Below are positions 2,657-41,159 of a stretch of DNA of 64,000 nt, piece by piece. The position numbers were made by a program, and so were the translations under genes. The first letter of the stretch is position 1; each line of letters opens with the position of its first letter. The stretch lies in the NCBI GenBank assembly GCA_031260125.1, contig JAIRKM010000035.1:6130-70129 (forward strand), given 5' to 3'. The notes beneath the pieces were generated by a model. That model worked only from the letters and a program-made list of their open reading frames with translations, was not told where the DNA came from and searched no databases. Origin of the DNA: Helicobacteraceae bacterium (lineage in GTDB: Bacteria > Campylobacterota > Campylobacteria > Campylobacterales > SZUA-545).

Positions 2657-3087
2657 TTTGCTCCCCCCACTTTAGTAAGAAATTTGTTCTCTACGCCGCT
2701 TGTCAGCAAAAGCGTTCGCGTTCTGCCGTCTTTCCTGAGAATGACCGAGTCGGTCATAATCGCCTCCACTCTCCAGCCGCTTATCGCCAGCTCGCCTTTC
2801 TTTTTCCACTCGCCGTTGATCATCGCCTTCTTGCCGATCACCGATTCGAGCTTAGGCTCAAGCGAAACGATCTGAACCGTCTGATTGTTTTCGTCCAATC
2901 GCGGCGGGTAATAGAAGGGGTTCTTAAACTGCGGCAATGGCGGATTCGCCACGCTTTTGATCTCTACTATTTTTTCGTCAATGTTTGCCTTCTCAGCCGG
3001 AATCGGTTGAACCGGATCGTCAGCAAACAGGAGCAAAAATGCCCCAGCGCACAACAGAAAGACTATTTTTCTCATTGTAACCCCCAA
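2653..3087 (-). CDS. PilP-like small periplasmic/lipoprotein component of the secretin assembly
   Basis: 144 aa, N-terminal signal peptide (FLLCAGAFLLLFA), position between the PilO-like gene and the secretin, 4-nt overlap with secretin start. Confidence 0.5.
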   Translation of the reverse strand: MGVTMRKIVFLLCAGAFLLLFADDPVQPIPAEKANIDEKIVEIKSVANPPLPQFKNPFYYPPRLDENNQTVQIVSLEPKLESVIGKKAMINGEWKKKGELAISGWRVEAIMTDSVILRKDGRTRTLLLTSGVENKFLTKVGGAK

Positions 3088-3719
3088 AGTTCAGTCGTAA
3101 CGTCAAAGGCTAGTCTGTGATCCTCGTCGATTGTGAGGTTGAGCTTACTAATCGGCGTTACCTTCTCTCTAGCTGTCTCCAGTCCGTACAGATACTGCAT
3201 CACGGCGTTGAATCCGCCCCTGCCTTGAAGATCGATCTCCATCACGGGCGCAAACCCTGTCTTGGTCGGCAATATCCTATTCTCCTGAACAACCAGCGCC
3301 AGACTGCGATCCGCCGCCAGCTTTGTAACAAAGTTCAACTGATCCGCCCACTCTTCCGTGCTGAAAAATAAATAGGACATTGCGCTAAGCTCGCGGAAGA
3401 GATAGTCTTTGGTAGTGTCAAACTCTATCGTTTCTATCTCAAGCTGGACGATCTCGTTGCGCAGGTCTTCAACCTCCGCTTTGAGGCTGCCGCCTTGATA
3501 CTGCGCGAGCTGACTTACGTTTTGATTGTAGGTCTTTACCGACTTAGTACTCATCGCCTCCACTTTGGGAATCGCAAAAAAGTAAACAAGCGCCAACAGA
3601 GCAACCGGAATTCCCAGAGCGAATAAACGGATTTCACTGCCTTTACGCTGCTCAATCCACGCGTCTAGCTTGTTGACAGCATCGTCAAACTTAACGGAAA
3701 GTTCCTGTAATTTGCTCAT
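3072..3719 (-). CDS. PilO/GspM-like bitopic inner-membrane protein
   Basis: 215 aa; short cytoplasmic N-terminus, one TM (LFALGIPVALLALVYFFAIP), coiled-coil then periplasmic domain; operon position. Confidence 0.5.
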   Translation of the reverse strand: MSKLQELSVKFDDAVNKLDAWIEQRKGSEIRLFALGIPVALLALVYFFAIPKVEAMSTKSVKTYNQNVSQLAQYQGGSLKAEVEDLRNEIVQLEIETIEFDTTKDYLFRELSAMSYLFFSTEEWADQLNFVTKLAADRSLALVVQENRILPTKTGFAPVMEIDLQGRGGFNAVMQYLYGLETAREKVTPISKLNLTIDEDHRLAFDVTTELWGLQ

Positions 3720-6256: not shown

Positions 6257-7140
6257 GAATCGTAGCCAAACTTTGCTAAATTTATCGTGCCGTTCCTCCA
6301 GTTTTCCATTATTTCTACCGAAAGGCTTAAAAAAACCTTTTTGCCTAAAAAACGCTCGATCATCTCTCGAGAACGCGATCCCACACGTTTTATGGCGCTT
6401 CCGCCGCTACCGATAACGATCGCCTTCTGCGATTCCTTCTCCACTACAACGCGGGCGTAAATCTTGTCAATCCGTTGCCCCTCGCTGAACGAATCGACGA
6501 TCACATCGGCGGAGTACGGCACCTCGTCGCTGAGCTTGTCAAAAAGCGCCTCTCGGATCATCTCTTTGCATATCTCTCTGACGCTTAGATCGGTAAGTTC
6601 GTCTGGATCGTAGTAAAACGGATGTTCGGGCAGGTGTTTCACCGTCTCCTCCAAAAGCGCCGCAAAATCGCCTCTTTTCGCGCTGATAGGCACAAGACCC
6701 AAAAACCTCGCGGAAAACGGCTGATAACGCGCTATGCGCCTTAGGCGCTCCTGCAAGGTGAAGTTGTCCATTTTGGTCAGCACTACGATGTGCGGGAGGC
6801 GGCAGACAGCCAGAAACCGCTCGTAGGCTGCGGTGTCATCCGCCATATCCGCGAGAAAATACACCAAATCCGCCTCTTGAAGCGATCTCATCATCTCCTT
6901 TTGCATAAACTCGTCGAGCTTGCGCCCTCTCTTTTCAATGCCGGGCGTGTCGATCAAAACGATCTGCGCGTCTTTGTAGGTAACGATCGCCTTTTGACGC
7001 TTGCGGGTTGCGCCCGCTTTGTGGCTTACAAGCGCGATCCGCTCTTTCAATATCGCGTTGATCAGCGTGCTTTTGCCGGCGTTCGTCCTGCCGATTACCG
7101 CTACAAAGCCCGCCTTAGAGGATGTAGCGCGCCGCATCAT
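6253..7140 (-). CDS. era: GTPase Era
   Basis: G1 motif GRTNAGKSTLIN, G domain plus C-terminal KH domain. The start is probably the internal Met (MRRATSSKAGFVAV...) rather than the track start at 7149; exact start uncertain. Confidence 0.9.
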   Translation of the reverse strand: MMRRATSSKAGFVAVIGRTNAGKSTLINAILKERIALVSHKAGATRKRQKAIVTYKDAQIVLIDTPGIEKRGRKLDEFMQKEMMRSLQEADLVYFLADMADDTAAYERFLAVCRLPHIVVLTKMDNFTLQERLRRIARYQPFSARFLGLVPISAKRGDFAALLEETVKHLPEHPFYYDPDELTDLSVREICKEMIREALFDKLSDEVPYSADVIVDSFSEGQRIDKIYARVVVEKESQKAIVIGSGGSAIKRVGSRSREMIERFLGKKVFLSLSVEIMENWRNGTINLAKFGYDS

Positions 7141-28760: not shown

Positions 28761-30032
28761 CTATCGATCAACATTCAGTCCATCCGAAAGACTGATCCGG
28801 TATGCGCGTATCGCGGGTATCATCCCCGCCGCCACGCCCGCCGCCGCTACCGCCGCCATAATGATCCACTCTCCGGCGCGCGGCAGTCCAAGCTCGAACG
28901 CAATCCCGTAAGCATCTAAGATCGCCGGTCCCAGCAGAAGCGTGGCCACGTCAATCGCCGCTACCCCAGTTGCAATGCCAATCGTAACTAGTATCATACC
29001 TTCGCTTAGCAGCAGTATCGCAATGTCAAACGGCTTCGCGCCGCACGATCTCAAAACGGCCAGCTCGCGCCGCCGCTCATTCAGCCCCGCTGAAATCGTC
29101 GCGATCAGCCCCAGAAGCGTCGTTACCGTTACCAGAGAACCCACAAGCAGCAACACCCGCTCGCCCGTGCTGAGCGTCTGCCAAATCTGATCCATCGCCA
29201 CACCCGGCATTACGGCGGAAAGCGGCTCGTCTTTATACGCGCCGATCTCGCGCTGCAAAGAAAAGACCCGCGTTCGATCCTTGAGCCCCACCAGCAACGC
29301 CGTAATGCTTTTTGGCTCCAGATTGAACCGCCGCGCCTGCTCGGGCGCGACATCAAAACCTTTGATCGGCGCTCCGCCCCTCCAGTTTAAGTGGATCGCC
29401 TCCATCGCCTCAAGACTGATAAACAGCGAGCGATCGACCGGCGTGCCAGTGGGGGCGAGGATACCCGTTACCGTAAACGGCTTATCGCTGTGATCGGCGA
29501 GAACCGCCGCGCCCGATCCATGCCGCAGAACGACCGAATCGCCAAGCGCGTAGCCAAGCCTTCGCGCCGCTTCGGAACCGATCGTGATGTCGTAGAGATC
29601 GTCAAAAGGCTTGCCATTCGCGAAACGCAGCGTGTTGTCGCCGCGGAAACGGTAACGCTCAAACATCGCGCCGCTTGTCGCCACCACGGGATACCCCTTG
29701 TGCGAATCGCCCAACGAAACGGGTATTGTCCACGCAACATCCTCACGCGCCGCTATCGCCTTTGCGCTCTTGTAGCCCATGTTGTTTGTCGCGCCGCCAA
29801 GATGAAAGATCGCGTAAAAGATCAACTGAGCATCGCCGCCACGCGCGCCTACCACAAGATCGACGCCGTAAACCGCCTGCGTAAAGCTCTCCCGCGCCTG
29901 CGCTCTCGTCCGCTCAATGCCTATAAGAAGCGCGGTGGATATGGCAATTGAAAAGACCACCAACGCCAGCACGCCGCGCCGATTCCACGCGCTACGCCGC
30001 GCCAGATAGACAGAATAGATCAGGCGGCGCAC
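28761..30032 (-). CDS. ABC transporter permease, FtsX/MacB-like (ZrgC-like)
   Basis: 423 aa; TM1, large periplasmic domain, three C-terminal TMs. Confidence 0.8.
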   Translation of the reverse strand: MRRLIYSVYLARRSAWNRRGVLALVVFSIAISTALLIGIERTRAQARESFTQAVYGVDLVVGARGGDAQLIFYAIFHLGGATNNMGYKSAKAIAAREDVAWTIPVSLGDSHKGYPVVATSGAMFERYRFRGDNTLRFANGKPFDDLYDITIGSEAARRLGYALGDSVVLRHGSGAAVLADHSDKPFTVTGILAPTGTPVDRSLFISLEAMEAIHLNWRGGAPIKGFDVAPEQARRFNLEPKSITALLVGLKDRTRVFSLQREIGAYKDEPLSAVMPGVAMDQIWQTLSTGERVLLLVGSLVTVTTLLGLIATISAGLNERRRELAVLRSCGAKPFDIAILLLSEGMILVTIGIATGVAAIDVATLLLGPAILDAYGIAFELGLPRAGEWIIMAAVAAAGVAAGMIPAIRAYRISLSDGLNVDR

Positions 30033-30715
30033 GAACGATCCTCTCTAATCCGGCTGATCTCGCCAATCGCCGCCGTGCGATCAAACGCTCCAGCAAGAGA
30101 GAGATCGTGGCTTACAAAGATCAAGGAAGAAGAGGCGCGAAGAGAGAGTAGTAGCCGTAAAAATCCCTCCCGCCGATCGCTATCAAGCGCGGAAGTCGGC
30201 TCGTCGGCGATGATCAGATCGGGCGCGCCGATGAGCGCTCTCGCGGCGGCAACGCGCTGCTGCTCCCCAACGCTGAGCATAGCAGCCCGCCGATCCCACA
30301 GCGCGGGCGGCAGATCGAGGCGCGTCAAAAGATCGCGCGCTTTTTCAAGCGGAACGCCCGCTTCGGCGCGGCGTCTTCCCGAAAGCTCGCACGGGATCAG
30401 CACGTTATCGAAAGGCGTGAGATATGGGATCAGGTTAAATCGCTGGAAGATAAAACCGATCCGATCGGCGCGGAAAGCGTCGCGCGCGGAGCCGCTAAGG
30501 GCGTCTATGCGCGTGCCGCACACGACAACCGAGCCGCTTTGGGGTTGTAAAATACCCGCGATCAGACTGAGCAATACGCTCTTGCCGCTACCGCTGGGAC
30601 CGTGTATAAATACACTCTCCCCGCGCTTTACGGAAAAGTCGGGAATATCAAGAACCGCCGGCTCTGTCCTCTTCCATCCAAAACGCAGGTCTTTTAAATT
30701 GACGATCTCGCTCAT
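30020..30715 (-). CDS. ABC transporter ATP-binding protein (ZrgB-like)
   Basis: Walker A GPSGSGKS, signature LSVGEQQR, Walker B LIIADEPTSALD; 231 aa. Confidence 0.9.
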   Translation of the reverse strand: MSEIVNLKDLRFGWKRTEPAVLDIPDFSVKRGESVFIHGPSGSGKSVLLSLIAGILQPQSGSVVVCGTRIDALSGSARDAFRADRIGFIFQRFNLIPYLTPFDNVLIPCELSGRRRAEAGVPLEKARDLLTRLDLPPALWDRRAAMLSVGEQQRVAAARALIGAPDLIIADEPTSALDSDRREGFLRLLLSLRASSSLIFVSHDLSLAGAFDRTAAIGEISRIREDRSCAA

Positions 30716-31275
30716 CGCCCAATCTTGATCGTCTTCTCCTTAGGCGTCAGCTCAACGGCGCTTTGAGACTTTTGGGTAACCACCCGCGCTTCGATCTCCT
30801 CTATATTAGGAAAAAACTTGAAAAGCTCAACCCCGATCGTGCCGATCGCCGCCGTGTTTTGGCACTCAAAGTCAAAATCGCCGTCAAGATCAATATGTTC
30901 GGCGTGTTCAGCATGTTCAGCGTGTTCGTCATCATCTTCCTCATCTTCATCGTCGTCCAGATGCGCCATCGACAGCTCGACTTTTACCATTTTGCAGTTA
31001 GCCGACTTAGGAAAGATGAAGATCGCGTCGGCCTTTTTCAGCGTGTCCTCCATCGCGTTGGCTTCCTTCTTTTCAGCCTCGCTCTCGGGCGTATGCTCAA
31101 AAGAGAGCAGATTGGCCAGTGGGGATTCCAGCTCAATGCTCACCGCCTTTGCCCCGATCGATACGTTAAGGCGCGCTACGCCATGCTCGTGCGCCGCGTG
31201 TTCGTGCGCTCCCTGCGCGGCTGCCGCCATCAGCGCGATCGCCGCCGCCAACCGTCCAAATGTCAAACCATACAT
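30712..31275 (-). CDS. His-rich periplasmic metal-binding protein (ZrgA/DUF2796-like)
   Basis: Signal peptide; N-terminal AHEHAAHEHG and central acidic/His tract DDDEDEEDDDEHAEHAEHAEH; first gene of the ABC operon. Confidence 0.6.
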   Translation of the reverse strand: MYGLTFGRLAAAIALMAAAAQGAHEHAAHEHGVARLNVSIGAKAVSIELESPLANLLSFEHTPESEAEKKEANAMEDTLKKADAIFIFPKSANCKMVKVELSMAHLDDDEDEEDDDEHAEHAEHAEHIDLDGDFDFECQNTAAIGTIGVELFKFFPNIEEIEARVVTQKSQSAVELTPKEKTIKIGR

Positions 31276-31314: not shown

Positions 31315-31445
31315 AAATGCTTAAAGCGCCGCCATCTGAACTCCCGCTTGCGACGGTTTAATGGTGAAAGTGGTGATTAAAGCGGTGTTATAATACGGCG
31401 GAATTGTATCCGTGTAGCATCTTATCTTTCAAAAGGAGAAAACAG

Positions 31446-32555
31446 GTGGAAATCGTCTGGAAAGCGGCGGGAACGTTGATTGGCGTCCTGTTGTTGTTTT
31501 GGTTTGCAAGAGTCTTGATCCGCAATTTCATACGTTTTGCGAAATTTGCGCCAAATCGTTACGTCTTTCGTTATAAAGGCGAGAAGATCGCGGCGGAGGG
31601 AGCGGGGCTGTCCTTTTTCTACTTCGCTCCCTCTACGTCGCTCGTCGCCGTTCCTATCAGCAGCGAGGACGCCCCTTTTATGCTCTCGGAGACTTCCGCC
31701 GATTTTCAAGAACTCACGATACAGGGGCAGATCACCTACCGCATCTTCGATCCCGCGCAGGCGGCGAAGATGCTCAATTACGCTATCGATATTGAGCGAT
31801 CCGGCCTGACCTATCAATCGGAGGACCCGCAAAAACTGCCGGAGCGCATTATAAATCTAGCGTTGGTCGCTATAAAGGGAACGGTCAAAAATCTCACGCT
31901 TAAAGAGGCGATTATCGCTTCGGACGACATCGCGAGAAAAACGCATCTGTCGCTCTCTGGACATGAGATGATCAAGGCTCTAGGCGTGGAAATACTAGGG
32001 CTGTCCGTCGCCGCCGTCCGACCTGTCCCAGAAACTGCCAAGGCGCTGGAAGCCGAAACGCGCGAAAGCATTTTGCAAGAGTCCGATCAGGCCGTTTTTC
32101 AGCGGCGCAATTATGCCGTGGAACAAGAGCGCATTATCCGCGAGAGCGAACTAAATACCGAGATCGCCGTGGAAAAAAAGAATCGGGAGATTCAAGAAAG
32201 CAAGCTGGAAACCCAGCGTCTGGCGATGAAAAAAGAGTTGGAAATGCAAGAAGAGCGCCTTACCTTTCAGATCTCACAGGAAAAGAGGAATCAAGCGCTG
32301 ATCGATCTGAAAACGCGCAACGACAAGGCGGTCGCCGACGCTAAGGCTTACGCGCTCAAAGCGATTATCGCGGCTTACGAGAACACGAACCCGGCAGTTC
32401 TGAAAATATTGGCAAACGCCGGTCTGGATTCCGGGCGGCTGCTTGCGCAGGCTTTCCAAGGTATCGCCGATCAAGCGGAAAAAATCGGCAGTCTCAATAT
32501 CACGCCCGATCTTCTGCACGCGCTCGTAAAGAACGCGCCTTCTAAGTCTTCCTAA
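31446..32555 (+). CDS. SPFH/band-7 (flotillin-like) membrane protein
   Basis: GTG start after AAGGAG (track start at 31404 lacks an SD); N-terminal TM, SPFH domain, long Glu/Lys-rich coiled-coil (...EQERIIRESELNTEIAVEKKNREIQESKLE...). Confidence 0.75.
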   Translation: MEIVWKAAGTLIGVLLLFWFARVLIRNFIRFAKFAPNRYVFRYKGEKIAAEGAGLSFFYFAPSTSLVAVPISSEDAPFMLSETSADFQELTIQGQITYRIFDPAQAAKMLNYAIDIERSGLTYQSEDPQKLPERIINLALVAIKGTVKNLTLKEAIIASDDIARKTHLSLSGHEMIKALGVEILGLSVAAVRPVPETAKALEAETRESILQESDQAVFQRRNYAVEQERIIRESELNTEIAVEKKNREIQESKLETQRLAMKKELEMQEERLTFQISQEKRNQALIDLKTRNDKAVADAKAYALKAIIAAYENTNPAVLKILANAGLDSGRLLAQAFQGIADQAEKIGSLNITPDLLHALVKNAPSKSS

Positions 32556-32575
32556 ACGCGAACGGGCGGCGGTTT

Positions 32576-33625
32576 ATGAAAAAATACGATCGCCGCATCG
32601 TCGTCATTACGCGGGAGACGCGGCTAGAAAAGGTGTTGATAAGCCAGAATACCCGCTCTCAAGCGAAGTTTTACATCCATTCACTGGGCGGTGATTTTGA
32701 CGATTACGACATGGAAGATCGCCAATATCACGCTTCGGTGTTGGATACGCGCCAACGCTTGGAAGAGATAGGCGCTATTCAGGTATTAGATCGCAAATAC
32801 CTGCCCAATTTTATTTTCGCGCCGGAGGATATTGTGGTTGCGATCGGTCAAGATGGGCTGGTGGCAAACACGATCAAGTATCTAAACGATCAACCGATTA
32901 TAGGCGTCAATCCCGATCCCGATCGCTGGGACGGCGTACTCCTGCCCTTCACGCCGAAAGACGCGGCGAAAATCGCCGAGGACGTCATAACGCGGCGGCG
33001 AAAAACGCAAGAGGTGACTATGGCGAAGGCGCGTATTCAAAACGGACAGGAGTTGCTGGCGGTCAACGATTTCTTCATCGGGCAACGCACCCATGTCTCC
33101 GCTCGTTATATTATCAAGCACGGCGGGCTTAAAGAGCCGCAATCATCAAGCGGCGTTATCGTCTCCACGGGACTAGGCTCTACGGGCTGGATGAAAAGCA
33201 TCCTCGCCGGCGCCTCGCGCATATCCGCTTCTGTTATCGGACATCCTTACGGCGGACTACAGGAAAATGATCGTCTTGTAGAGGAGGAAAAAAATGTGTT
33301 TTTTAGCAGGTTAGATTATAAACCGCCATTAAAAGCGCGGCAAAAGAAACAAAGCTACGGCTTTTCAGAGCTATCGAGCGTCATTGGCAAATGGAAGAGC
33401 GAAGAGCTGATCTTCGCTGTGCGCGAACCATTTCCAAGCAAAACGACGGGCACTACGCTGGTTTTTGGAAAAGTTTCGGCAAAGGAGCCCTTGCGCATAG
33501 AATCTCTAATGGGTGAAAACGGCGTGATCTTCAGCGACGGCATAGAGGGCGATTTTCTCGCCTTCAATTCAGGCGCCGAAGCGCTAATCACCATCGCGGA
33601 TAAGCGTGGGCATATTGTTGTATAG
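32576..33625 (+). CDS. NAD-kinase-fold (PpnK/DAGK_cat-like) protein, atypical
   Basis: Degenerate NadK motifs: GQDGLV (for GGDG), NDFFIG (for NE[IV]), STGLGSTGWMKS (for DG..T.GSTAYS); 349 aa with unique N- and C-terminal regions; 20 nt downstream of the flotillin gene. Confidence 0.5.
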   Translation: MKKYDRRIVVITRETRLEKVLISQNTRSQAKFYIHSLGGDFDDYDMEDRQYHASVLDTRQRLEEIGAIQVLDRKYLPNFIFAPEDIVVAIGQDGLVANTIKYLNDQPIIGVNPDPDRWDGVLLPFTPKDAAKIAEDVITRRRKTQEVTMAKARIQNGQELLAVNDFFIGQRTHVSARYIIKHGGLKEPQSSSGVIVSTGLGSTGWMKSILAGASRISASVIGHPYGGLQENDRLVEEEKNVFFSRLDYKPPLKARQKKQSYGFSELSSVIGKWKSEELIFAVREPFPSKTTGTTLVFGKVSAKEPLRIESLMGENGVIFSDGIEGDFLAFNSGAEALITIADKRGHIVV

Positions 33626-33714: not shown

Positions 33715-33743
33715 TTGACAATCTCTATCGACTATTGTAAGAT
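33715..33743 (+). promoter_or_regulatory. Sigma70-like promoter of the cysM operon
   Basis: TTGACA-17 nt-TAAGAT, about 50 nt upstream of the GTG start. Confidence 0.45.
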
Positions 33744-33793: not shown

Positions 33794-34696
33794 GTGCATC
33801 TGCCCGATTTAATAGGTAATACGCCCCTGCTGGAGCTCTCAAACATAGCCTCCAAAAGGGCGGGAGTCTCCATTTACGCCAAAGCGGAATTCTGCAACCC
33901 GTCAGGTTCCGTCAAGGATCGAGCCGCCAAAGCCATGCTCCTTGATGGCATTGCAAAAGGGCTGCTGACAAAAGGCAAAACGATCATCGACGCCTCAAGC
34001 GGCAACACCGGCATCGCTTACGCTATGCTAGGCGCCGCGCTTGGGTATCCGGTGGTGATATATCTGCCTGCCAACGCCAGCGAAGAGAGAAAGAGCTTTC
34101 TGAAGCGCTATGGCGCGGCGATCGTAGAGACCGATCCGCTGGAAAGTTCCGATGGCGCGTTTCTGGCGGCGCGTAAAGAAGCGGCTGCCCACCCCGATAG
34201 ATATTTCTATCCCGATCAGTACAACAACGATGCCAATTGGAAGGCGCATTATCAGACGACCGCTCCAGAAATATGGAAGGCGACAGAGGGTAAGATAACG
34301 CACTTTATAGCCGGCACGGGGACTTCCGGCACGCTGATGGGAACTAGTAGGCGGCTCAAGGAGCTTAATCCCAATGTAAAGGCGATCGCCATTCAGCCCG
34401 ATTCGCCTTTTCACGGCATAGAAGGAACAAAACACATGGCTTCGACGATCAAACCCGGCTTCTATGACGAGAGGTTTGTGGACGGAATCGTTGAGGTAAG
34501 CACGGAGGAGGCGTACGCCGCGGCGCGGCTTCTGGTCAGAAAAGAGGGGGTATTTGCCGGCATCAGCGCCGGCGCCAACGTGCAAGGAGCGCTGAAACTT
34601 GCCGGCGATCTGCCCGATGGTTCGCTGATCGTTACGGTGCTGGGCGATAGCGGTTCTCGATATCTATCGGAAAAATTCTGGGAGGCGGATCTGTGA
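33794..34696 (+). CDS. cysM: PLP-dependent cysteine synthase, CysM-type (uses the CysO thiocarboxylate carrier)
   Basis: GTG start after GGAGAAAG; PLP-lysine motif SGSVKDRAA; 300 aa; operon context with ThiS-like carrier and JAMM protease. Confidence 0.85.
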   Translation: MHLPDLIGNTPLLELSNIASKRAGVSIYAKAEFCNPSGSVKDRAAKAMLLDGIAKGLLTKGKTIIDASSGNTGIAYAMLGAALGYPVVIYLPANASEERKSFLKRYGAAIVETDPLESSDGAFLAARKEAAAHPDRYFYPDQYNNDANWKAHYQTTAPEIWKATEGKITHFIAGTGTSGTLMGTSRRLKELNPNVKAIAIQPDSPFHGIEGTKHMASTIKPGFYDERFVDGIVEVSTEEAYAAARLLVRKEGVFAGISAGANVQGALKLAGDLPDGSLIVTVLGDSGSRYLSEKFWEADL

Positions 34697-35112
34697 TCGC
34701 CATTGACGCGCAGCAACTCAGCGCTATAAGAGGCGAAGGGGAAGCGGCGTATCCGCACGAGTGCTGCGGCGCGCTGCTAGGAAAGATCGATGGCGACACA
34801 AAACGAATCGCCGCCATCTTGCCAATCGCAAATGCCCGCGAAGAGGAGGAGCGCTATCATCGCTTCACCATCACGCCGGAGGATATGATGAGGGCGGAAC
34901 TAGAAGCGCGGAAGATGAAACTGGACGTGGTAGGCTTCTACCACTCCCATCCGGATCATCCGGCGACACCATCTGAGTACGACAGAGAGCATGCTCTGCC
35001 CTTCTACTCTTACGTGATCGTCGCGGTGGAGAAGGGACGATCGGCGCGGCTGACCAGTTGGGAGCTGACGGAGAACAGAGACAAATTTAAGGAGGAAACA
35101 ATATGGCAATAA
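34693..35112 (+). CDS. JAMM/MPN+ metalloprotease (Mec/QbsD-like) that trims the sulfur-carrier protein
   Basis: JAMM motif HSHPDHPATPSEYD (HxHx7Sx2D) and upstream E (AYPHECCG); 139 aa; 4-nt overlap with cysM. Confidence 0.85.
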   Translation: MIAIDAQQLSAIRGEGEAAYPHECCGALLGKIDGDTKRIAAILPIANAREEEERYHRFTITPEDMMRAELEARKMKLDVVGFYHSHPDHPATPSEYDREHALPFYSYVIVAVEKGRSARLTSWELTENRDKFKEETIWQ

Positions 35113-35393
35113 CGGTGCTTGTGCCTACGGCTCTAAGAGCCTTTACGGATCAGAAGTCTGAAGTGGCGGTAGAGGGCAACACCGTCGCAAGCGCAATAGC
35201 GGCGCTGGCGGAAGCCTACCCGGACATAAAACGCCACCTGTATCAGGACGAGGAAAATCTGCGTTCGTTCATCAACGTCTTCGTGGGAGATACAAACATA
35301 AAAAACCTCAACGGTCTCAACACCGCACTATCCGACGGATCAGAGATAATGCTTGTGCCAGCCATAGCCGGAGGATGCCGCACGTATGTCTGA
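35103..35393 (+). CDS. ThiS/MoaD-fold sulfur-carrier protein (CysO/QbsE-like) with C-terminal extension after the Gly-Gly
   Basis: 96 aa; ends ...LVPAIAGG-CRTYV, i.e. GG followed by Cys plus 4 residues (compare QbsE GG-CF); overlapped by both flanking genes. Confidence 0.75.
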   Translation: MAITVLVPTALRAFTDQKSEVAVEGNTVASAIAALAEAYPDIKRHLYQDEENLRSFINVFVGDTNIKNLNGLNTALSDGSEIMLVPAIAGGCRTYV

Positions 35394-36558
35394 AAGCGTT
35401 GTGCAAAATCGGGAACTTGCCGACCTCTCCAACGAGGAAATCTCCCGCTACAGCCGTCATCTGCTTCTGGCGGAAGTCGGACTTGAAGGGCAGCGGTGGC
35501 TTAAATCGGCGCGTGTATTGATCGTGGGAACAGGCGGGCTGGGCGCGCCCGTAGCCTTATATCTAGCCGCGGCGGGCGTGGGAACTCTGGGTATAGCGGA
35601 TTTTGACTTTGTGGAAGAATCCAACCTTCAGCGTCAGGTGATCCACTCCACGCGTGATATTGGAAGACCCAAGGTCGCCTCCGCTTTAGATCGCATACGC
35701 GGTATAAACCCAAGGATCAAGGTGAATATTTACAACACCGCCCTCAACAGCGGCAACGCGCTGGAGATCATCAAGGATTACGACGTAGTTGTGGACGGAA
35801 CGGATAACTATCAGACCAGATATCTGATAAACGACTCGTGCGTGCTTTTGGGCATTCCCAACGTTTACGGCTCCATATTTCAGTTTGAGGGGCAGGCCTC
35901 GGTGTTCTACGCAAAAGAGGGACCGTGCTACCGATGCCTCTACCCAGAGCCGCCGCCCGTCGGTTTAGTACCGTCCTGCGCCGAAGGAGGCGTGGTGGGT
36001 GCGCTCCCGGGCATTGTGGGCAGCATTCAAGCCAACGAGACGATCAAGCTGATCGTCGGCGGCGGCGCTCCTCTGATTGGGAGGCTTCTTCTTTTTGACG
36101 CATGGAGGGCGAAATTCAGAGAGCTTGCCATCGGCAAGGATATAAACTGCCCAATATGCGGAAAGGAGCCGTCGATTCACGAGCTTATCGATTACGAGCA
36201 GTTTTGCGGCTTGAAGAAAACGGAGGAAGACGATCCGATCGAAACGATCGGCGCGATAGAGCTTAAAGATCGCATCAATCGCGGCGAATCGCTTCAGATC
36301 GTCGATATCCGAGAGCCTCATGAACGGGCGATCGCCAAGTTTCCGCAGGCAAAAGCGATTCCGCTTGGGCAGATGGCTCGGCGCATAGACGAGTTTGATC
36401 CCGCGCTGGATACCGTGTTTGTTTGCAAAATAGGACAGCGCAGCGTTTTTGCGATCAGGGCTTTGCGGGAAGCAGGCTACAAGGGACGCCTGCTCAACCT
36501 AAGAGACGGGCTGAACGCCTGGGCAAAAGAGGTGGACAGTTCGCTGCCCATTCTTTAA
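35386..36558 (+). CDS. moeZ: E1-like adenylyl/sulfurtransferase MoeZ (ThiF/MoeB domain + C-terminal rhodanese)
   Basis: Nucleotide loop VGTGGLGAP, CxxC pairs (CYRC... CPIC), C-terminal rhodanese with active-site Cys (VFVCKIGQRS); 390 aa. Confidence 0.85.
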   Translation: MSESVVQNRELADLSNEEISRYSRHLLLAEVGLEGQRWLKSARVLIVGTGGLGAPVALYLAAAGVGTLGIADFDFVEESNLQRQVIHSTRDIGRPKVASALDRIRGINPRIKVNIYNTALNSGNALEIIKDYDVVVDGTDNYQTRYLINDSCVLLGIPNVYGSIFQFEGQASVFYAKEGPCYRCLYPEPPPVGLVPSCAEGGVVGALPGIVGSIQANETIKLIVGGGAPLIGRLLLFDAWRAKFRELAIGKDINCPICGKEPSIHELIDYEQFCGLKKTEEDDPIETIGAIELKDRINRGESLQIVDIREPHERAIAKFPQAKAIPLGQMARRIDEFDPALDTVFVCKIGQRSVFAIRALREAGYKGRLLNLRDGLNAWAKEVDSSLPIL

Positions 36559-36585
36559 TTTCAATTTAAAAGCAAGGAGTACATC

Positions 36586-37530
36586 ATGGCAGAAAAGGCG
36601 TTAAACGCATTGCGGCAGGAAGCCGCCTACCAACTCGCGGATATAACGAAAACCGCGCCTCAGTTCGGGTCTCTTACCCCGCGTTACCTGACCAGACTGC
36701 TGGAGTTCAAGGGGCTTGACGCGGGCATCTATCGGGTCAATCGGGTTGAGGAAGGAGAGACGCCTTTAGACGTGCTGTGCAGTCAGGATCCCAAAAAGGT
36801 CCAAATACCGCAGGGCTTCGTCGATTACGAAAAGAAACCCAGAGAGTATCGTCTCAACTCGATCAGCGTCATCATCAACGTAGATACGAAAGTCTCCGAC
36901 GTTTACAGCTCTCCGTTCGATCAGATCAAAGAGCAGCTTGGACTCGCCATTGAGAGTCTCAAAGAGCGGCAGGAGAGCCAGATTATCAACAGCGACGATT
37001 ACGGGCTTTTGAAAAACGCCGCCGATTCGCAGCGGATTCAGACCAGAGTCGGGCGTCCTATGCCGGACGACCTAGACGAGCTTATTACCAAAGTGTGGAA
37101 AGACCCGAGCTTCTTTCTCGCCCACCCGCGGGCGATAGCGGCTTTTGAGAGGGAATGCACCAGAAGGGGCGTACCGCCGGTTACGACGAATATCGCGGGC
37201 GGAACGTTTATCGCGTGGCGCGGCATCCCTATTATCCCAACCAACAAGCTTTTTGTGGATGGGTTGAAGGAGAGCAAGGCAAAAAGCGGCAAAACCAACA
37301 TTCTGCTGGTACGCACCGGCGAGGCAAAGCGCGGCGTGATCGGGCTTTTCCAAAACGGTCTTCCGAACGAGCAGTCGCGTGGGCTGTCGGTGCGCTTCCG
37401 CGGCATCGATGACAATGGGATCGCGTCTTATCTTCTCTCCCTTTACTGCTCGGCAGCGGTACTGGCCGACGACGCTCTGGCGGTATTGGAAGACGTAGAG
37501 GTCGGCGAATACTATGACTACCCTCTATAG
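36586..37530 (+). CDS. Putative Family 2A encapsulin shell protein (HK97-fold nanocompartment)
   Basis: Inferred from context: 314 aa soluble protein, no enzymatic motifs; directly upstream of, and 17-nt overlapping with, a cysteine desulfurase that carries a long disordered N-terminal extension. This is the defining arrangement of Family 2A encapsulin operons. Sequence-level family membership not verified. Confidence 0.45.
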   Translation: MAEKALNALRQEAAYQLADITKTAPQFGSLTPRYLTRLLEFKGLDAGIYRVNRVEEGETPLDVLCSQDPKKVQIPQGFVDYEKKPREYRLNSISVIINVDTKVSDVYSSPFDQIKEQLGLAIESLKERQESQIINSDDYGLLKNAADSQRIQTRVGRPMPDDLDELITKVWKDPSFFLAHPRAIAAFERECTRRGVPPVTTNIAGGTFIAWRGIPIIPTNKLFVDGLKESKAKSGKTNILLVRTGEAKRGVIGLFQNGLPNEQSRGLSVRFRGIDDNGIASYLLSLYCSAAVLADDALAVLEDVEVGEYYDYPL

Positions 37531-38995
37531 TGATTGGGAGCGCCCCGCCGGACTTCCCAGCGCGAGCGAGCTTGCCGCCCTTGCCGCCTCCTACTTTCCG
37601 GAGTTCTACAAGGCGGAAAACGACGCAAAAACGATAAAGAGCGCGTCGTTGCCGGCGTTTGACGCCCCGCTGGAAAAGGGTATCAGTCTGGGCGCATCTC
37701 CGGCTTACTCTCCGGCGGTTCTTCCAAAAGAGGGCGGCGTGGACGCAAAAAAAACCACCGCCTTTTCAACCCATCGCGTTGGGCGGCGGACTCTTGAGGC
37801 GATCCGCGCGGACTTTCCCATACTCTCCGAAAAGATAAACGGCAGAGAGCTGATCTGGTTTGACAACGGCGCCACCACGCAAAAGCCGTCGGCGGTTATT
37901 GATCGGCTCAAAACCTTCTACGAACACGAAAACTCCAACGTTCACCGCGGCGCTCACGAATTGGCAAGCAGAGCCACCGACGCCTACGAAGAGGCAAGAG
38001 CCGCCGCCGCGAAGTTTATCGGCGCGCCATCGCCCGATAACATCATCTTCGTCCGCGGGACGACCGAAGGGATCAATCTTGCGGCTCAAGCCTATGTCAA
38101 GCGGCTTCTTAAATCTGGAGACGAGATCGTTCTCACCCTTCTGGAACACCACGCGAATATCGTGCCGTGGCAGCTTGTCGCGGAAGAGACCGGCGCGCTT
38201 TTAAGGGTTGCGCCTGTGGACGACACCGGTCAGATCGTCCTCTCGGAGTACGCTCGTCTTTTCAACTCCCGTACCCGATTCGTAGCGGTGGCGCACGTGT
38301 CAAACGCGCTTGGCACGATCGCTCCCGTGGCGGAAATGATACAGATCGCCCACTCGCAGGGCGCGCGCGTCCTTGTTGACGGAGCGCAGTCAGTTCCCCA
38401 CATGCCGATCAACGTGAGCGATCTTGACGCGGACTTTTTCGTCTTTTCGGGACACAAAATCTTTGCGCCGACGGGAATTGGCGTTCTCTACGGAAAAAGC
38501 GAGGTGCTAGAGGCGGCGAAACCCTATCAGGGCGGCGGCAATATGATCGCCGATGTAACCTTTGAGCGCACCCTCTACCGCAAAGCGCCGGAAAAATTTG
38601 AGGCCGGCACGGGCAACATCGCCGACGCAGCGGCGTTAAGCGCGGCGCTGAACTACGTAAGCGAGATCGGCATAGAGAGTGTCGCCGCGTGGGAGCACGA
38701 GCTTCTCAACTATGGAACGAAAGAGCTTTCCAAAGTTCCGGGGCTTAAACTTATTGGAACGGCCTCGCAAAAAGCCGCGATCCTCTCGTTCGTGCTGGAG
38801 GGGCATAGCCTTGAAGAGGTTGGAAGTTATCTAAATAAAAAGGGCATCGCTGTCCGCACGGGACATCACTGCGCCCAGCCGATACACCGCCGTTTCAATC
38901 TTGAGGGAACGGTACGCTCCTCTTTGGCGTTTTACAACGCGCCGGAGGAGATAGAGGCTATGGCGCAAGCACTCCACGAGCTGGCGCGGCGTTAA
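37514..38995 (+). CDS. Cysteine desulfurase (SufS/CsdA class) with about 90-aa disordered A/P/S-rich N-terminal cargo-loading-type extension
   Basis: 493 aa vs about 405 for SufS; N-terminal MTTLYSDWERPAGLPSASELAALAAS...ASPAYSPAVLPKEGG is low-complexity; then canonical fold with PLP-lysine (SGHKIF) and active-site Cys (GHHCAQP). Confidence 0.85.
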   Translation: MTTLYSDWERPAGLPSASELAALAASYFPEFYKAENDAKTIKSASLPAFDAPLEKGISLGASPAYSPAVLPKEGGVDAKKTTAFSTHRVGRRTLEAIRADFPILSEKINGRELIWFDNGATTQKPSAVIDRLKTFYEHENSNVHRGAHELASRATDAYEEARAAAAKFIGAPSPDNIIFVRGTTEGINLAAQAYVKRLLKSGDEIVLTLLEHHANIVPWQLVAEETGALLRVAPVDDTGQIVLSEYARLFNSRTRFVAVAHVSNALGTIAPVAEMIQIAHSQGARVLVDGAQSVPHMPINVSDLDADFFVFSGHKIFAPTGIGVLYGKSEVLEAAKPYQGGGNMIADVTFERTLYRKAPEKFEAGTGNIADAAALSAALNYVSEIGIESVAAWEHELLNYGTKELSKVPGLKLIGTASQKAAILSFVLEGHSLEEVGSYLNKKGIAVRTGHHCAQPIHRRFNLEGTVRSSLAFYNAPEEIEAMAQALHELARR

Positions 38996-39367
38996 TCGGG
39001 CGGCGCTTCGCGCCCGCCTCGATCGAACGATCGTATATGCGCGTCAAACCGAGAAGCCCGATGTAAATTTCACATTAAATTTAAGGGACACAACTCAAAG
39101 CCAGCCGATTTCACTAAATTTGGATTTTTGCTGTATTTTAGATAATAATAAATAAAATTTAAGCGCCGCCGCATATTAGATCAAATCAAAATAACAAAAC
39201 TATTTTCAGTTTTATAATATATAAATTTTTGCTCTATAAAAGTTGAAATATAAAACTTCAAATCTGATCGTTAAGCGATTTTTCCGCGCCAATTCGAGGT
39301 TTGCGGGCGTTATCGGCGAAAATACGCGCATAATTAAAACCAAACTTTTTGCGATTATTAAACCTCA

Positions 39368-39396
39368 TTGACATATATTTACAAATCTGTTACTAT
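39368..39396 (+). promoter_or_regulatory. Sigma70-like promoter for the MCP gene
   Basis: TTGACA-17 nt-TACTAT within the AT-rich intergenic region, about 95 nt upstream of the ATG. Confidence 0.45.
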
Positions 39397-39488
39397 CTGT
39401 ACGCTGCGTAAAACTATGCGTGAATCTGACTATTTAATCAATTTTGGCTGGTTTTGCGTTTGTAAATATATGATGAGGGATATCTATT

Positions 39489-41159
39489 ATGACTATATCT
39501 GTCAAATCAAGACTTATGACGTTGGTGATCGTAGGTATTGCCGGCGTCTCTCTGACCGCCGCGATCGGTTATATTAACGCCGTACGCGACGAGGCGGCGA
39601 TGGACGATATGTACCACGATCGGCTTATGTCCGTTATGCAGATACTCCAGTTCAAATACGCCATTACCGAGGTGAACAAGCGCAGCTATCAGCTTGCCGC
39701 TTTCTCGCACCTTCTTCCGCCCGATCGGTACACGACGGAAGCGCGGCGCATGCTCGAACTCCATGAAACGGCGTTAAAGCTGGCGCAGGACAACGTTGAT
39801 GCCTTTGGGCGCTCGGCGATAGACGGCGAAAGCAGGAAGATGTGGGACAGCTTTGAAACGCAATGGAGGCGGTGGAAGGAAACCGAGAGTGAAGCGAAAC
39901 GGTTCGTTGAAGAGCGCATAACAGCCCCCTCAGCCGCTTCAATGAGCGAAATATCCCGCTACCTGACGGAAGAGAATTTCAAAAAAAGAGCGCTGACTCA
40001 AGAGCTAACGGCGATGGTTGATAAGTTCGGCGATCTCAAGCGGGATGGGGCTCGCCGAAGCTTTGACGAGGCGATCGGCGCGACACGCAATATGATCAAG
40101 GTAAACATTGGCGCGTTTGTTCTCGCTATCACGCTGATCGGACTCATCGCGTGGTCGATCTTCCGATCCGTTATCAAGCCGATCCGCTATACCCGCAATC
40201 TGGTGGTGCGAATAGCAAACGAGCAGAATCTCACGTTGCGCGTCGATCACAGCGCCGGCGATGAGATTGGCGAGATGGTCGCGGCGTTTAACCAGATGGT
40301 CGAGAAGATTCAACGTTCGGTGGTCGCGATTAACGATCGGGTGGAACTAGTCAACAAGGAGGTCGTCAGCTTCTCAAAGGAAGCGGAATCGGTCGCTCTG
40401 GAATCGCAGGCGCAAAGTACAGCCGCAAGCTCAATGGCGGCATCGGTGGAGGAGATGACGGTAAGTATCAGCTCCGTTTCCGACAACGCCTCCGACGCGC
40501 AGAAGGTGGCGCAAAACGCGGGCGAAATCAGCGGTCTTGGCAGTCAGATCATCGATAAAACGTCGCGCGAAATGGACGTGATGGTAGAGATCGTCTTGCA
40601 GACATCGCAGGTTATTCAGACTCTTGGCGAAGAATCGCATCAAATCAACAGCGTCGTGCAGGTGATTAAAGATGTCGCCGATCAGATAAACCTGCTGGCT
40701 CTCAACGCGGCGATAGAAGCGGCAAGGGCGGGCGATCAGGGCAGAGGTTTCGCGGTCGTTGCCGACGAGGTGCGCAAACTTGCCGAGTGTACGTCAAAGT
40801 CGATCGACGACATTACAGCGATGATCAATAAAATCCAAGCGAGCGCAAGCGAGGCGGTTGAAGCGATGGATAAGGTTGTCCATTGTGTGGAGCAGGAGCA
40901 GAAACTCGCGAAGGACGCCGGTGAAAAGATGCGCCATATCCACGATCAGACAAAAACCGTCTCCGGCGCGATTGACGAGATTTCCAACGCTCTTAAAGAG
41001 CAGAGCCTCGCCAGTCAGGATATTGCCAAAAACATCGAAAAGGTGTCGCAGATGACCTGCAAAAACAGCGAATCGGCAGACGCCGCCGCCGCAAACGCCA
41101 AACAACTAGGGCTGCTCGCGCGCGAGGTAAAAGAGACGCTTTCGCGTTTTAAGGCGTGA
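39489..41159 (+). CDS. Methyl-accepting chemotaxis protein (4HB-type periplasmic sensor, HAMP, MA domain)
   Basis: Two TMs flanking a helical periplasmic domain; signalling-domain core [32 protein letters not shown]; 556 aa. Confidence 0.92.

Follow-up and report, generated by a model that had tools for sequence, protein, structure and literature searches.

Why should a pathway that makes cysteine be encoded directly beside a protein compartment predicted to consume it? The question is raised by a cluster of six co-directional genes at positions 33,794 to 38,995 (+ strand) of a 64,000-nucleotide stretch of DNA from a Helicobacteraceae bacterium (contig JAIRKM010000035.1), the whole of which is here called the window. 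The first four genes encode homologues of CysM, Mec, CysO and MoeZ, the protein types of a protein-thiocarboxylate route to cysteine, and the last two encode a Family 2A encapsulin shell protein and a cysteine desulfurase (CyD) of the encapsulin cargo type. Published accessory genes of desulfurase encapsulins are a rhodanese and a serine acetyltransferase (Nichols 2021; Andreas & Giessen 2021; Benisch 2024), giving four operon types, namely shell plus desulfurase alone, with rhodanese, with serine acetyltransferase, or with both (Benisch 2024). Published work leaves open by what route the stored sulfur is recovered and which functions the rhodanese and the serine acetyltransferase of these operons have. 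The window cluster places the rhodanese of a well-understood sulfur-activating enzyme beside the shell gene, together with a carrier, a protease and a final sulfhydrylase, and the outcome is a concrete biochemical hypothesis for the exit path of stored sulfur in which every component is named.

Open reading frames and profile searches with Pfam and NCBIfam place the six genes exactly where an initial annotation of the window had placed them, and together with solved relatives they bear out all six of its gene identities. The pairing of the thiocarboxylate module with a desulfurase encapsulin recurs in at least 50 species of gut anaerobes in about ten phyla, and as far as searched it is a new operon variant that has not been described.

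Distribution of the linkage

The linkage was followed by scanning one genome per species (GTDB representatives) with a 10-sequence alignment of the shell protein. The best 80 of at least 594 relatives, at 60-85% identity, were taken with 10-kb flanks (individual loci are cited by L numbers), in which neighbours were located by tblastn with the six window proteins and three recurrent neighbours, identified by Pfam and NCBIfam as a MetY family O-acetylhomoserine sulfhydrylase, a serine O-acetyltransferase and a small sulfite-reductase-like protein. Of the 80 shells, 57 reach at least 70% identity, and 54 of the 57 have enough flank to judge. An E1-rhodanese gene is present in the locus of 50 of these 54 close shells, and in 49 it lies directly upstream of the shell gene, which upholds the initial proposal that the cysteine module and the encapsulin-desulfurase pair belong together. 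Among shells below 70% identity (Acidobacteriota, Leptospira, some Oscillospiraceae and Planctomycetota) an E1-rhodanese gene occurs in 1 of 20 evaluable loci; L061, with CysM, Mec and CysO genes at a contig end, is a second such locus with module genes. A neighbour-joining tree of the shells unites the E1-bearing loci in a single crown clade, within which there are four losses.

Neighbourhoods retrieved by exact protein give the same picture, the module accompanying the shell and CyD set in four of four (Leadbettera, two Synergistales and a Treponema). The two Synergistales genomes and the Treponema metagenome-assembled genome (MAG) have an identical six-gene order, with a hexapeptide acetyltransferase gene added after CyD in both Synergistales loci. 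An arrangement shared by dozens of unrelated genomes lies far beyond chance.

The hosts recovered in the scan are Spirochaetota, Synergistota, Campylobacterota, Desulfovibrio, many Bacillota (Ruminococcus, Lachnospiraceae, Selenomonas, Oscillospiraceae), Fibrobacter, Succinivibrionaceae, Planctomycetota, Lentisphaeria/Victivallales, a Propionibacterium and a 'Bacteroides' MAG. Judging by isolate names, most of them come from termite gut or rumen; the names of the shell relatives and of Leadbettera azotonutricia ZAS-9 denote termite-gut material. The hosts of this cluster family are strict gut anaerobes, unlike the published hosts of Family 2A encapsulins, and L. azotonutricia ZAS-9 provides a cultured host that carries the set.

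The closest shells, 80-86% identical, are found in Treponema, Synergistaceae and Desulfovibrio genomes, and among the next 119 database clusters for the shell, at 81-97% identity, those that carry a name are Treponema, Spirochaetia and Synergistaceae MAGs and Leadbettera azotonutricia. Identity of 80-86% across Campylobacterota, Spirochaetota and Synergistota implies that the shell gene has moved between phyla. The same comparisons give 54-80% identity for the remaining five proteins, so it is the block as a whole that is shared. No related locus, that of a second Helicobacteraceae MAG (L044) included, has the genes that flank the cluster in the window, so that there is no shared synteny. The cluster, a compact sulfur unit passed between phyla, is not a trait of the Campylobacterota. 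The initial annotation had framed it within that phylum, a view that does not hold; and because the cluster is shared across phyla among gut anaerobes, comparison within the Campylobacterota is the wrong test. In effect, termite-gut and rumen bacteria of about ten phyla have exchanged a whole organelle-plus-pathway unit, which suggests selection on sulfur economy in both habitats.

Co-localisation in related genomes also persists where the locus has been rearranged. Gene order is inverted in L037 and L061 (shell-CyD-...-CysM-Mec-CysO), two genes have been inserted in L002, and MetY takes the place of CysM in many loci; the linkage is kept in every case. A linkage that survives reordering, insertion, new genomic context and a swap of the sulfhydrylase is what functional coupling would lead one to expect, and it is hard to explain by inertia alone.

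The shell and its cargo

The shell gene (36,586-37,530, +) encodes a protein of 314 amino acids whose sole Pfam match is the SrpI-like family PF19307 (E = 1e-95) and which scores 485.8 bits against NF041162, the family 2A shell model, above the cutoff of 380. Its closest solved relatives are the A. baumannii desulfurase-encapsulin shell 8T6R (E = 2e-116) and SrpI 6X8M (E = 1e-109). It is thus a Family 2A shell, of the SrpI-like HK97-type family and without a cyclic-nucleotide-binding domain. A lysine-rich loop insertion at residues 223-236 was considered as a mark of the E1-associated clade and rejected, as it is also found in shells that lack the module.

The CyD gene (37,514-38,995, +) encodes a SufS-type (class II) cysteine desulfurase of 493 amino acids. 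It matches PF00266 (E = 3e-140) and the SufS subfamily model (537 bits, above the cutoff of 475), and scores 773 bits against NF041166, the family 2A cargo desulfurase model, just under the cutoff of 800 because its loading domain is short. The best solved relative is 8KG1, at 564 bits, as against at most 447 bits for ordinary SufS proteins. The pyridoxal phosphate (PLP) lysine motif SGHK and the catalytic cysteine motif RTGHHCAQP are both present. The desulfurase domain begins at about residue 94, leaving some 93 residues of low complexity outside the enzyme domain (37,514-37,792, +). Within this region the motifs GLPSASELAALAASYFPEF and AYSPAVLP are both kept in the CyD N-termini of relatives, and GLPSASELAALAASYFPEF corresponds to the published cargo-loading motif 'LARLANEFFS' (PMC8049743). 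The shell gene is therefore adjoined by a cargo-type desulfurase, with a 93-residue N-terminal extension whose ELAALAASYFPEF motif is common to its relatives. Because the cargo-loading motifs are kept and the gene overlaps the shell gene by 17 nt, CyD is expected to reside inside the shell.

The thiocarboxylate module

The cluster opens with cysM (33,794-34,696, +; 300 amino acids), which has a GTG start preceded by a GGAG ribosome-binding site and encodes a CysM-like PLP-dependent cysteine synthase (PF00291, E = 5e-75). Its top NCBIfam model is TIGR01138 cysM, at 334 bits and under the cutoff of 394, and it retains SVKDR, the motif of the PLP lysine, as well as the TSGNTG loop. The protein is 38.7% identical to CysM of Mycobacterium tuberculosis (reference sequence checked as identical to 3DWG chain A), which ranks among its solved relatives (176.7 bits) below Thermus O-acetylserine sulfhydrylase (212.4 bits) and Escherichia coli CysM (206.5 bits), and is likewise outranked by the Salmonella cysteine synthase. 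At the column of mycobacterial Arg220, the O-phosphoserine determinant, window CysM has lysine, as do CysMs of the cluster family, with arginine in two relatives; the mycobacterial C-terminal tail is absent from the cluster CysMs in the alignment. Given the 38.7% identity, the lysine and the missing tail, use of O-phosphoserine is not established, and O-acetylserine is favoured as the substrate because related clusters often carry a serine acetyltransferase gene.

The second gene, mec (34,693-35,112, +; 139 amino acids), encodes a Mec-like JAMM/MPN+ metalloprotease (PF14464, E = 1e-25) with an intact H-x-H-x7-S-x2-D zinc motif, HSHPDHPATPSEYD. Its top solved relative is 2KCQ (E = 3e-29), a protein of Salinibacter ruber, one of the species with a type 4c operon (see below).

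The third gene, cysO (35,103-35,393, +; 96 amino acids), encodes a precursor of a CysO-like ThiS/MoaD sulfur carrier protein (PF02597). Its best solved relatives are the CysO protein 4N6E_B and M. tuberculosis CysO 3DWG_C (E of about 1e-13), and its alignment with them runs over the full length as far as the Gly-Gly at residues 90-91. The C-terminus reads AIAGG followed by a five-residue tail, CRTYV, and further residues, typically 1-18, follow the conserved AIAGG in 20 of 20 loci where the carrier has its own gene. Elsewhere, in 33 of 53 related loci, CysO is fused in frame to the N-terminus of MoeZ, giving a protein of about 485 amino acids with a short linker (...AIAGG-APxESV...-E1); such fusions are found in L012 (8492-9949), L014-L016, L019, L022, L025, L028-L034, L036, L038-L043, L045, L047-L049, L051, L052, L055, L057, L058, L062, L067 and L071. 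These fusions tie CysO to MoeZ. As the carrier always bears a tail or is fused, a protease cut after Gly-Gly is needed before it can be activated, which explains why the JAMM gene is constant. The separate cysO of the window, with its CRTYV tail and 8-nt overlap with moeZ, looks like a split form of the fusion. A seeming triple fusion of CysO, E1 and shell in L027 (8507-10936) was rejected, since it has an internal stop and a frameshifted E1 end and is probably a MAG assembly error.

The fourth gene, moeZ (35,386-36,558, +; 390 amino acids), encodes an E1 adenylyltransferase with a C-terminal rhodanese domain (PF00899 and PF00581). The protein matches the MoeZ model NF005902 over nearly its full length, at 450 bits and under the cutoff of 647, and its solved relatives are MoeB 1JW9 and Uba4 6YUB. 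The motifs GTGGLG, CYRC, SCAEGG and CPIC and the rhodanese loop CKIGQRS are kept across 51 shell-adjacent homologues, the active-site loop C-K-x-G-x-R-S being present in 51 of 51; the rhodanese cysteine in CKIGQRS is C347. The best matches of the rhodanese domain are the rhodanese domains of CoA-persulfide reductase and persulfide dioxygenase fusions.

Locus variants

Three forms of the locus can be distinguished. The window type (18 loci) has the order CysM-JAMM-CysO-E1/rhodanese-shell-CyD, often followed by an acetyltransferase. In a second form (15 loci, among them L031 and L039), found in rumen Lachnospiraceae, Fibrobacter and Succinivibrionaceae, MetY (PF01053, TIGR01326) stands in for CysM, giving MetY-JAMM-CysO-E1/rhodanese-shell-CyD-acetyltransferase. 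The third is acetyltransferase-CysO-E1/rhodanese-shell-CyD. A serine acetyltransferase gene follows CyD in 34 of the 57 close loci and completes a cysteine-synthesis set there; none is found anywhere in the 64-kb window.

Loci of the MetY form usually hold, 3' of the acetyltransferase, a second E1 (270 amino acids, without rhodanese) and a second JAB protein (149 amino acids), at 13791-15066 in L039 and similarly in L014, L016, L025, L028, L029, L031, L033, L034, L036 and L040, so that two E1/JAB pairs surround one encapsulin. A small sulfite-reductase-like protein (NIR_SIR plus 4Fe-4S) is encoded beside MetY in L019 (5024-5884), L027, L033 and L051, in an arrangement that recalls the sulfur-assimilation neighbourhood of the Wolinella type.

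Outside the E1-bearing clade, an acidobacterial locus without the E1 module (Terracidiphilus, L086) has a stand-alone rhodanese of 152 amino acids (2952-3407) directly upstream of the shell, the position held by the E1-rhodanese in the gut clade. No stand-alone rhodanese was found beside E1-bearing shells with a profile built from only two sequences, a search too weak for argument.

Proposed retrieval of stored sulfur

What the module does beside the shell can be approached from the chemistry of its parts. The favoured reading, to which a probability of about one half is given, is that the module would retrieve the sulfane sulfur made by the encapsulated desulfurase, with the E1-rhodanese module as the exit route. 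CyD would be loaded into the shell through its N-terminal motifs and, by the example of the A. baumannii homologue, would there convert cysteine to alanine and zero-valent sulfur. The JAMM protease would trim the five residues that follow the CysO Gly-Gly, as the universal tail or fusion implies, and the E1 domain of MoeZ would adenylate the exposed C-terminus. The rhodanese cysteine, carrying a persulfide, would then turn the adenylate into CysO-thiocarboxylate, a conversion that is established chemistry for MoeZR, MOCS3 and Uba4. The sulfane sulfur for this step would be drawn from the encapsulin pool, most likely reaching MoeZ on a small carrier of persulfide or polysulfide, or through docking of MoeZ at the shell, and not by direct contact with CyD. 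CysM would join the thiocarboxylate to an aminoacrylate derived from O-acetyl- or O-phosphoserine, and the JAMM protease would free cysteine and regenerate CysO, the net being a closed loop between cysteine and stored sulfur. In the rumen subclade the same exit would feed MetY and yield homocysteine, so that the MetY variant would probably effect a productive transfer of sulfur from cysteine to homocysteine.

Several published observations are consistent with such a route. In the A. baumannii homologue, encapsulated CyD makes alanine from cysteine and elemental sulfur builds up in the shell (2024), and for the rhodanese of that operon the remobilisation of stored sulfur has been a proposed, unproven role. 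Rhodaneses carry sulfane sulfur, the oxidation state that desulfurase encapsulins store (PMC10836720), and the direction of retrieval fits because they carry sulfur in the zero-valent, stored state. In enzymes of the MoeZR type the rhodanese cysteine takes up sulfur as a persulfide, and the carrier is then thiocarboxylated; the primary sulfur donor of mycobacterial MoeZR is left unresolved in the literature, where a cysteine desulfurase has been proposed (PMC3227635). A stronger form of the retrieval reading, in which the E1-rhodanese and carrier module is dedicated retrieval machinery, with MoeZ acting alone or as a fusion to CysO, and the six genes make up a complete store-and-release cycle that has spread horizontally among gut anaerobes, is put forward only tentatively. 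If it is true, it would by analogy explain the stand-alone rhodanese and acetyltransferase genes in the other half of desulfurase-encapsulin operons.

A number of points weigh against retrieval. In the CysM variant the loop from cysteine to zero-valent sulfur and back makes sense only if storage and retrieval take place at different times, and is otherwise futile. The shell stands between CyD and MoeZ and prevents their contact, so that a carrier or docking at the shell would be needed. Nor is the MoeZ rhodanese domain close kin of the A. baumannii encapsulin-associated rhodanese, a comparison of the two giving nothing at E <= 0.1. Across the window and 18 related loci, two tRNA matches were all that Rfam gave at gathering thresholds, with no SAM, T-box or other sulfur-responsive element that would reveal the regulatory signal. 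Four close shells (L011, L017, L018 and L046) lack the module, and in Leadbettera azotonutricia the four-gene module is separated by two inserted genes, one on the opposite strand, from the sequence shell-CyD-...-acetyltransferase; because of these loci, the coupling of module and encapsulin is not obligatory. Lastly, shared regulation alone could keep such genes together.

This last point leads to the first rival explanation, that the two are sulfur-stress modules independent of each other, which travel and are expressed jointly as a 'sulfur island' but exchange no sulfur. The absence of the module beside the four close shells and the split Leadbettera locus would both follow from it, as would the occurrence of each half without the other, type 4c operons being known without encapsulins (PMC1779556) and desulfurase encapsulins without E1 being present in L063-L086. 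What makes co-regulation an improbable account of the whole is the very specific adjacency, the E1-rhodanese gene being the next one upstream of the shell gene in 49 of 54 loci, and its persistence across about ten phyla, through differing flanks, exchanges of the PLP enzyme and reorderings.

A second explanation, that of the initial annotation, turns the flow of sulfur around: the module would make cysteine from environmental sulfide or thiosulfate through MoeZ and CysO and so feed the encapsulated desulfurase, the task of the unit being to hold incoming reduced sulfur in an inert form, either to detoxify sulfide or as a store. Gene order, with cysteine synthesis first and consumption last, agrees with this direction, and gut habitats contain sulfide. 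A serine acetyltransferase in relatives would raise the supply of cysteine, and rhodanese domains of the MoeZR type use thiosulfate in vitro (PMC3227635). However, free sulfide and an ordinary CysK would suffice without an ATP-consuming carrier system, and the MetY variant is left unexplained, homocysteine not being a substrate of CyD. Supply also gives no reason for the rhodanese-bearing gene to stay at the shell gene in 49 of 54 loci, and published desulfurase-encapsulin systems are induced by sulfur starvation, not by excess. This direction is accordingly judged unlikely.

The initial annotation had proposed a more direct connection, in which the desulfurase passes persulfide to the rhodanese of MoeZ. 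In such a relay, CyD that is not encapsulated, or not yet loaded, would hand its persulfide over as Nfs1 does to MOCS3, and CysO-thiocarboxylate would then serve CysM, MetY and perhaps other thio-cofactor pathways. Transfer from a desulfurase to a rhodanese-E1 is established for human Nfs1-MOCS3 and proposed for MoeZR (PMC3227635). As CyD keeps its cargo-loading motifs and its gene overlaps the shell gene, it is expected inside the shell, where direct contact with MoeZ is unlikely, and in the CysM variant the relay would be a pure futile cycle. Direct hand-over is thus hard to reconcile with an encapsulated CyD, less likely than the indirect route from the shell pool, and very improbable as the function of the cluster. 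Least credible of all is a SAMP-like conjugation system of CysO, MoeZ and JAMM protease that reversibly tags shell, cargo or CysM, for although CysO scores 61 bits against a SAMP1 cutoff of 60 and the protease and E1 match the desampylase and UbaA models (both below cutoffs), a sulfhydrylase gene (CysM or MetY) is the partner throughout, the catalytic cysteine of the rhodanese is retained in every homologue, and among solved structures the carrier comes closest to CysO proteins.

Relation to described systems

Neither half of the cluster is new, and it is their junction that constitutes the novelty, since the four-gene set was described in 2006. Type 4c of Iyer, Burroughs and Aravind (2006) comprises a ThiS/MoaD protein, an E1-rhodanese, a JAB protein and a cysteine synthase (PMC1779556), and the first four genes of the window cluster match it exactly; type 4c has no encapsulin or desulfurase. 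The initial annotation had stressed that all four module genes lie together here, which they do, contiguously, without this being a novelty.

It had also likened the module to the route to cysteine of M. tuberculosis (CysM Rv1336, CysO Rv1335, Mec Rv1334, MoeZR Rv3206c), and the analogy stands in part. The four protein types are the same, and as in that pathway the E1 rhodanese domain keeps its catalytic cysteine and the JAMM motif is intact. The window thus encodes what marks a thiocarboxylate pathway: a ThiS/MoaD carrier with Gly-Gly, an E1-rhodanese with its active-site cysteine and a JAMM protease. The four genes are contiguous in the window, unlike those of M. tuberculosis; mycobacterial CysO ends in Gly-Gly, whereas window CysO is a precursor with five further residues; and the window CysM, differing from its mycobacterial counterpart in identity, at Arg220 and in the tail as described above, is not specifically of the M. 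tuberculosis type.

The MetY variant has a parallel of its own. A protein-thiocarboxylate pathway to homocysteine in Wolinella succinogenes, with HcyS, HcyD, HcyF and MetY, was reportedly described by Krishnamoorthy and Begley in 2011 (cited in PMC5764234). There the carrier likewise has one or more extra C-terminal residues that a JAMM protease removes, and the sulfhydrylase uses the thiocarboxylate; the MetY variant of the cluster family (e.g. L031 and L039) has the same enzyme set. The window differs in having CysM, with no MetY gene found in it, and the E1 of the cluster family always has a rhodanese and lies beside an encapsulin. The related type 4e, found in Wolinella among others, joins O-acetylhomoserine sulfhydrylase and sulfite reductase, and its E1s lack a rhodanese domain and draw sulfur from the sulfite reductase (PMC1779556). 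Protein-thiocarboxylate amino-acid synthesis thus extends well beyond actinobacteria and Wolinella.

With the described Family 2A systems (Synechococcus elongatus SrpI/CyD, the A. baumannii 118362 operon and mycobacterial Mmp1/Enc-CD) the cluster shares a shell of the same family, a cargo-type SufS with a LARLANEFF-like loading motif, and an order in which the shell gene directly precedes and overlaps the cargo gene. The loading region of CyD is about 93 amino acids long here, as against about 225 in the model systems. A rhodanese-bearing gene lies upstream of the shell both here and in the A. baumannii operon, which reads rhodanese-serine acetyltransferase-shell-desulfurase. The window cluster differs from the published operons in that its rhodanese is an E1 domain, accompanied by a carrier, a JAMM protease and a cysteine synthase; it falls outside the published operon types, which hold only a stand-alone rhodanese and/or a serine acetyltransferase, for its rhodanese is present only as an E1 domain and it has four extra genes. 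The neighbourhood table of Nichols contains no ThiF, ThiS or JAB entry among the Pfams it lists, which are those above about 20% co-occurrence, and Pfam-based counting in published surveys could have booked the E1-rhodanese as 'rhodanese'. A full-text search found no paper joining encapsulin to thiocarboxylate, MoeZ, ThiF, MoeB, JAMM or sulfur carrier protein, and the terms encapsulin and CysO returned one unrelated co-mention only.

Gene junctions and transcription signals

The tight packing of the six genes is borne out by the DNA. The initial annotation had given overlaps of 4 to 17 nt throughout, and these are found at four junctions: cysM/mec (4 nt, GTGA), mec/cysO (10 nt), cysO/moeZ (8 nt, ATGTCTGA) and shell/CyD (17 nt), each with a Shine-Dalgarno-like sequence upstream of the start. 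The fifth, between moeZ and the shell gene, is a gap of 27 nt (36,559-36,585, +), the only non-overlapping junction, with an AAGGAG ribosome-binding site 7 nt before the shell ATG.

A promoter-like site, TTGACA-17-TAAGAT (33,715-33,743, +; 10 of 12 matches), lies 50 nt 5' of the cysM GTG and is the sole + strand site of this kind from the upstream gene to the end of the cluster. Across the region, promoter-like sites occur at chance frequency (7 found, 4.5 +/- 2.1 expected from shuffles), as do terminator-like sites (10 found, 8.6 +/- 3.4 expected). The only terminator-like site near any junction, at 36,531-36,548, is weak, with five pairs. A GC-rich hairpin without a U tract (38,998-39,018, +) just 3' of the CyD stop codon is a possible transcript end, its stability being indistinguishable from that of shuffled sequence (z = 0.08). 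As the counts match shuffled sequence, these scans neither prove nor disprove a single transcript; the cluster is plausibly a single operon. Composition is uninformative as an island signature, with 55-56% GC in the cluster and 51-54% in the adjoining stretches.

The cluster is followed by an AT-rich spacer of 490 bp (38,996-39,488), beyond which lies a gene for a methyl-accepting chemotaxis protein (39,489-41,159). Two + strand promoter-like sites fall within the spacer, at 39,191 and 39,368. In the related locus L036, a weak match to the tRNA model (6681-6750; 34.7 bits, gathering score 29) lies about 30 nt 5' of the cluster-opening MetY gene.

Neighbouring genes

Directly upstream of the cluster (31,404-33,625, +) are genes for an SPFH/Band-7 protein of 383 amino acids and for a protein of 349 amino acids with no Pfam match and a faint similarity to NAD kinase (E of about 1e-4). 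Since no related locus has either gene beside its cluster, both lie outside the unit. Further upstream, on the opposite strand (28,761-31,275, -), lie a pair of ATP-binding cassette transporter genes, assigned by eye and encoding a membrane-permease-like protein of 423 amino acids and a protein of 231 amino acids with ATPase motifs, and then a gene for a protein of 187 amino acids with His-rich and Asp/Glu-rich runs (HEHAAHEHG...DDDEDEEDDDEHAEHAEHAEH). To judge from these features, the genes may form a metal-binding or uptake system.

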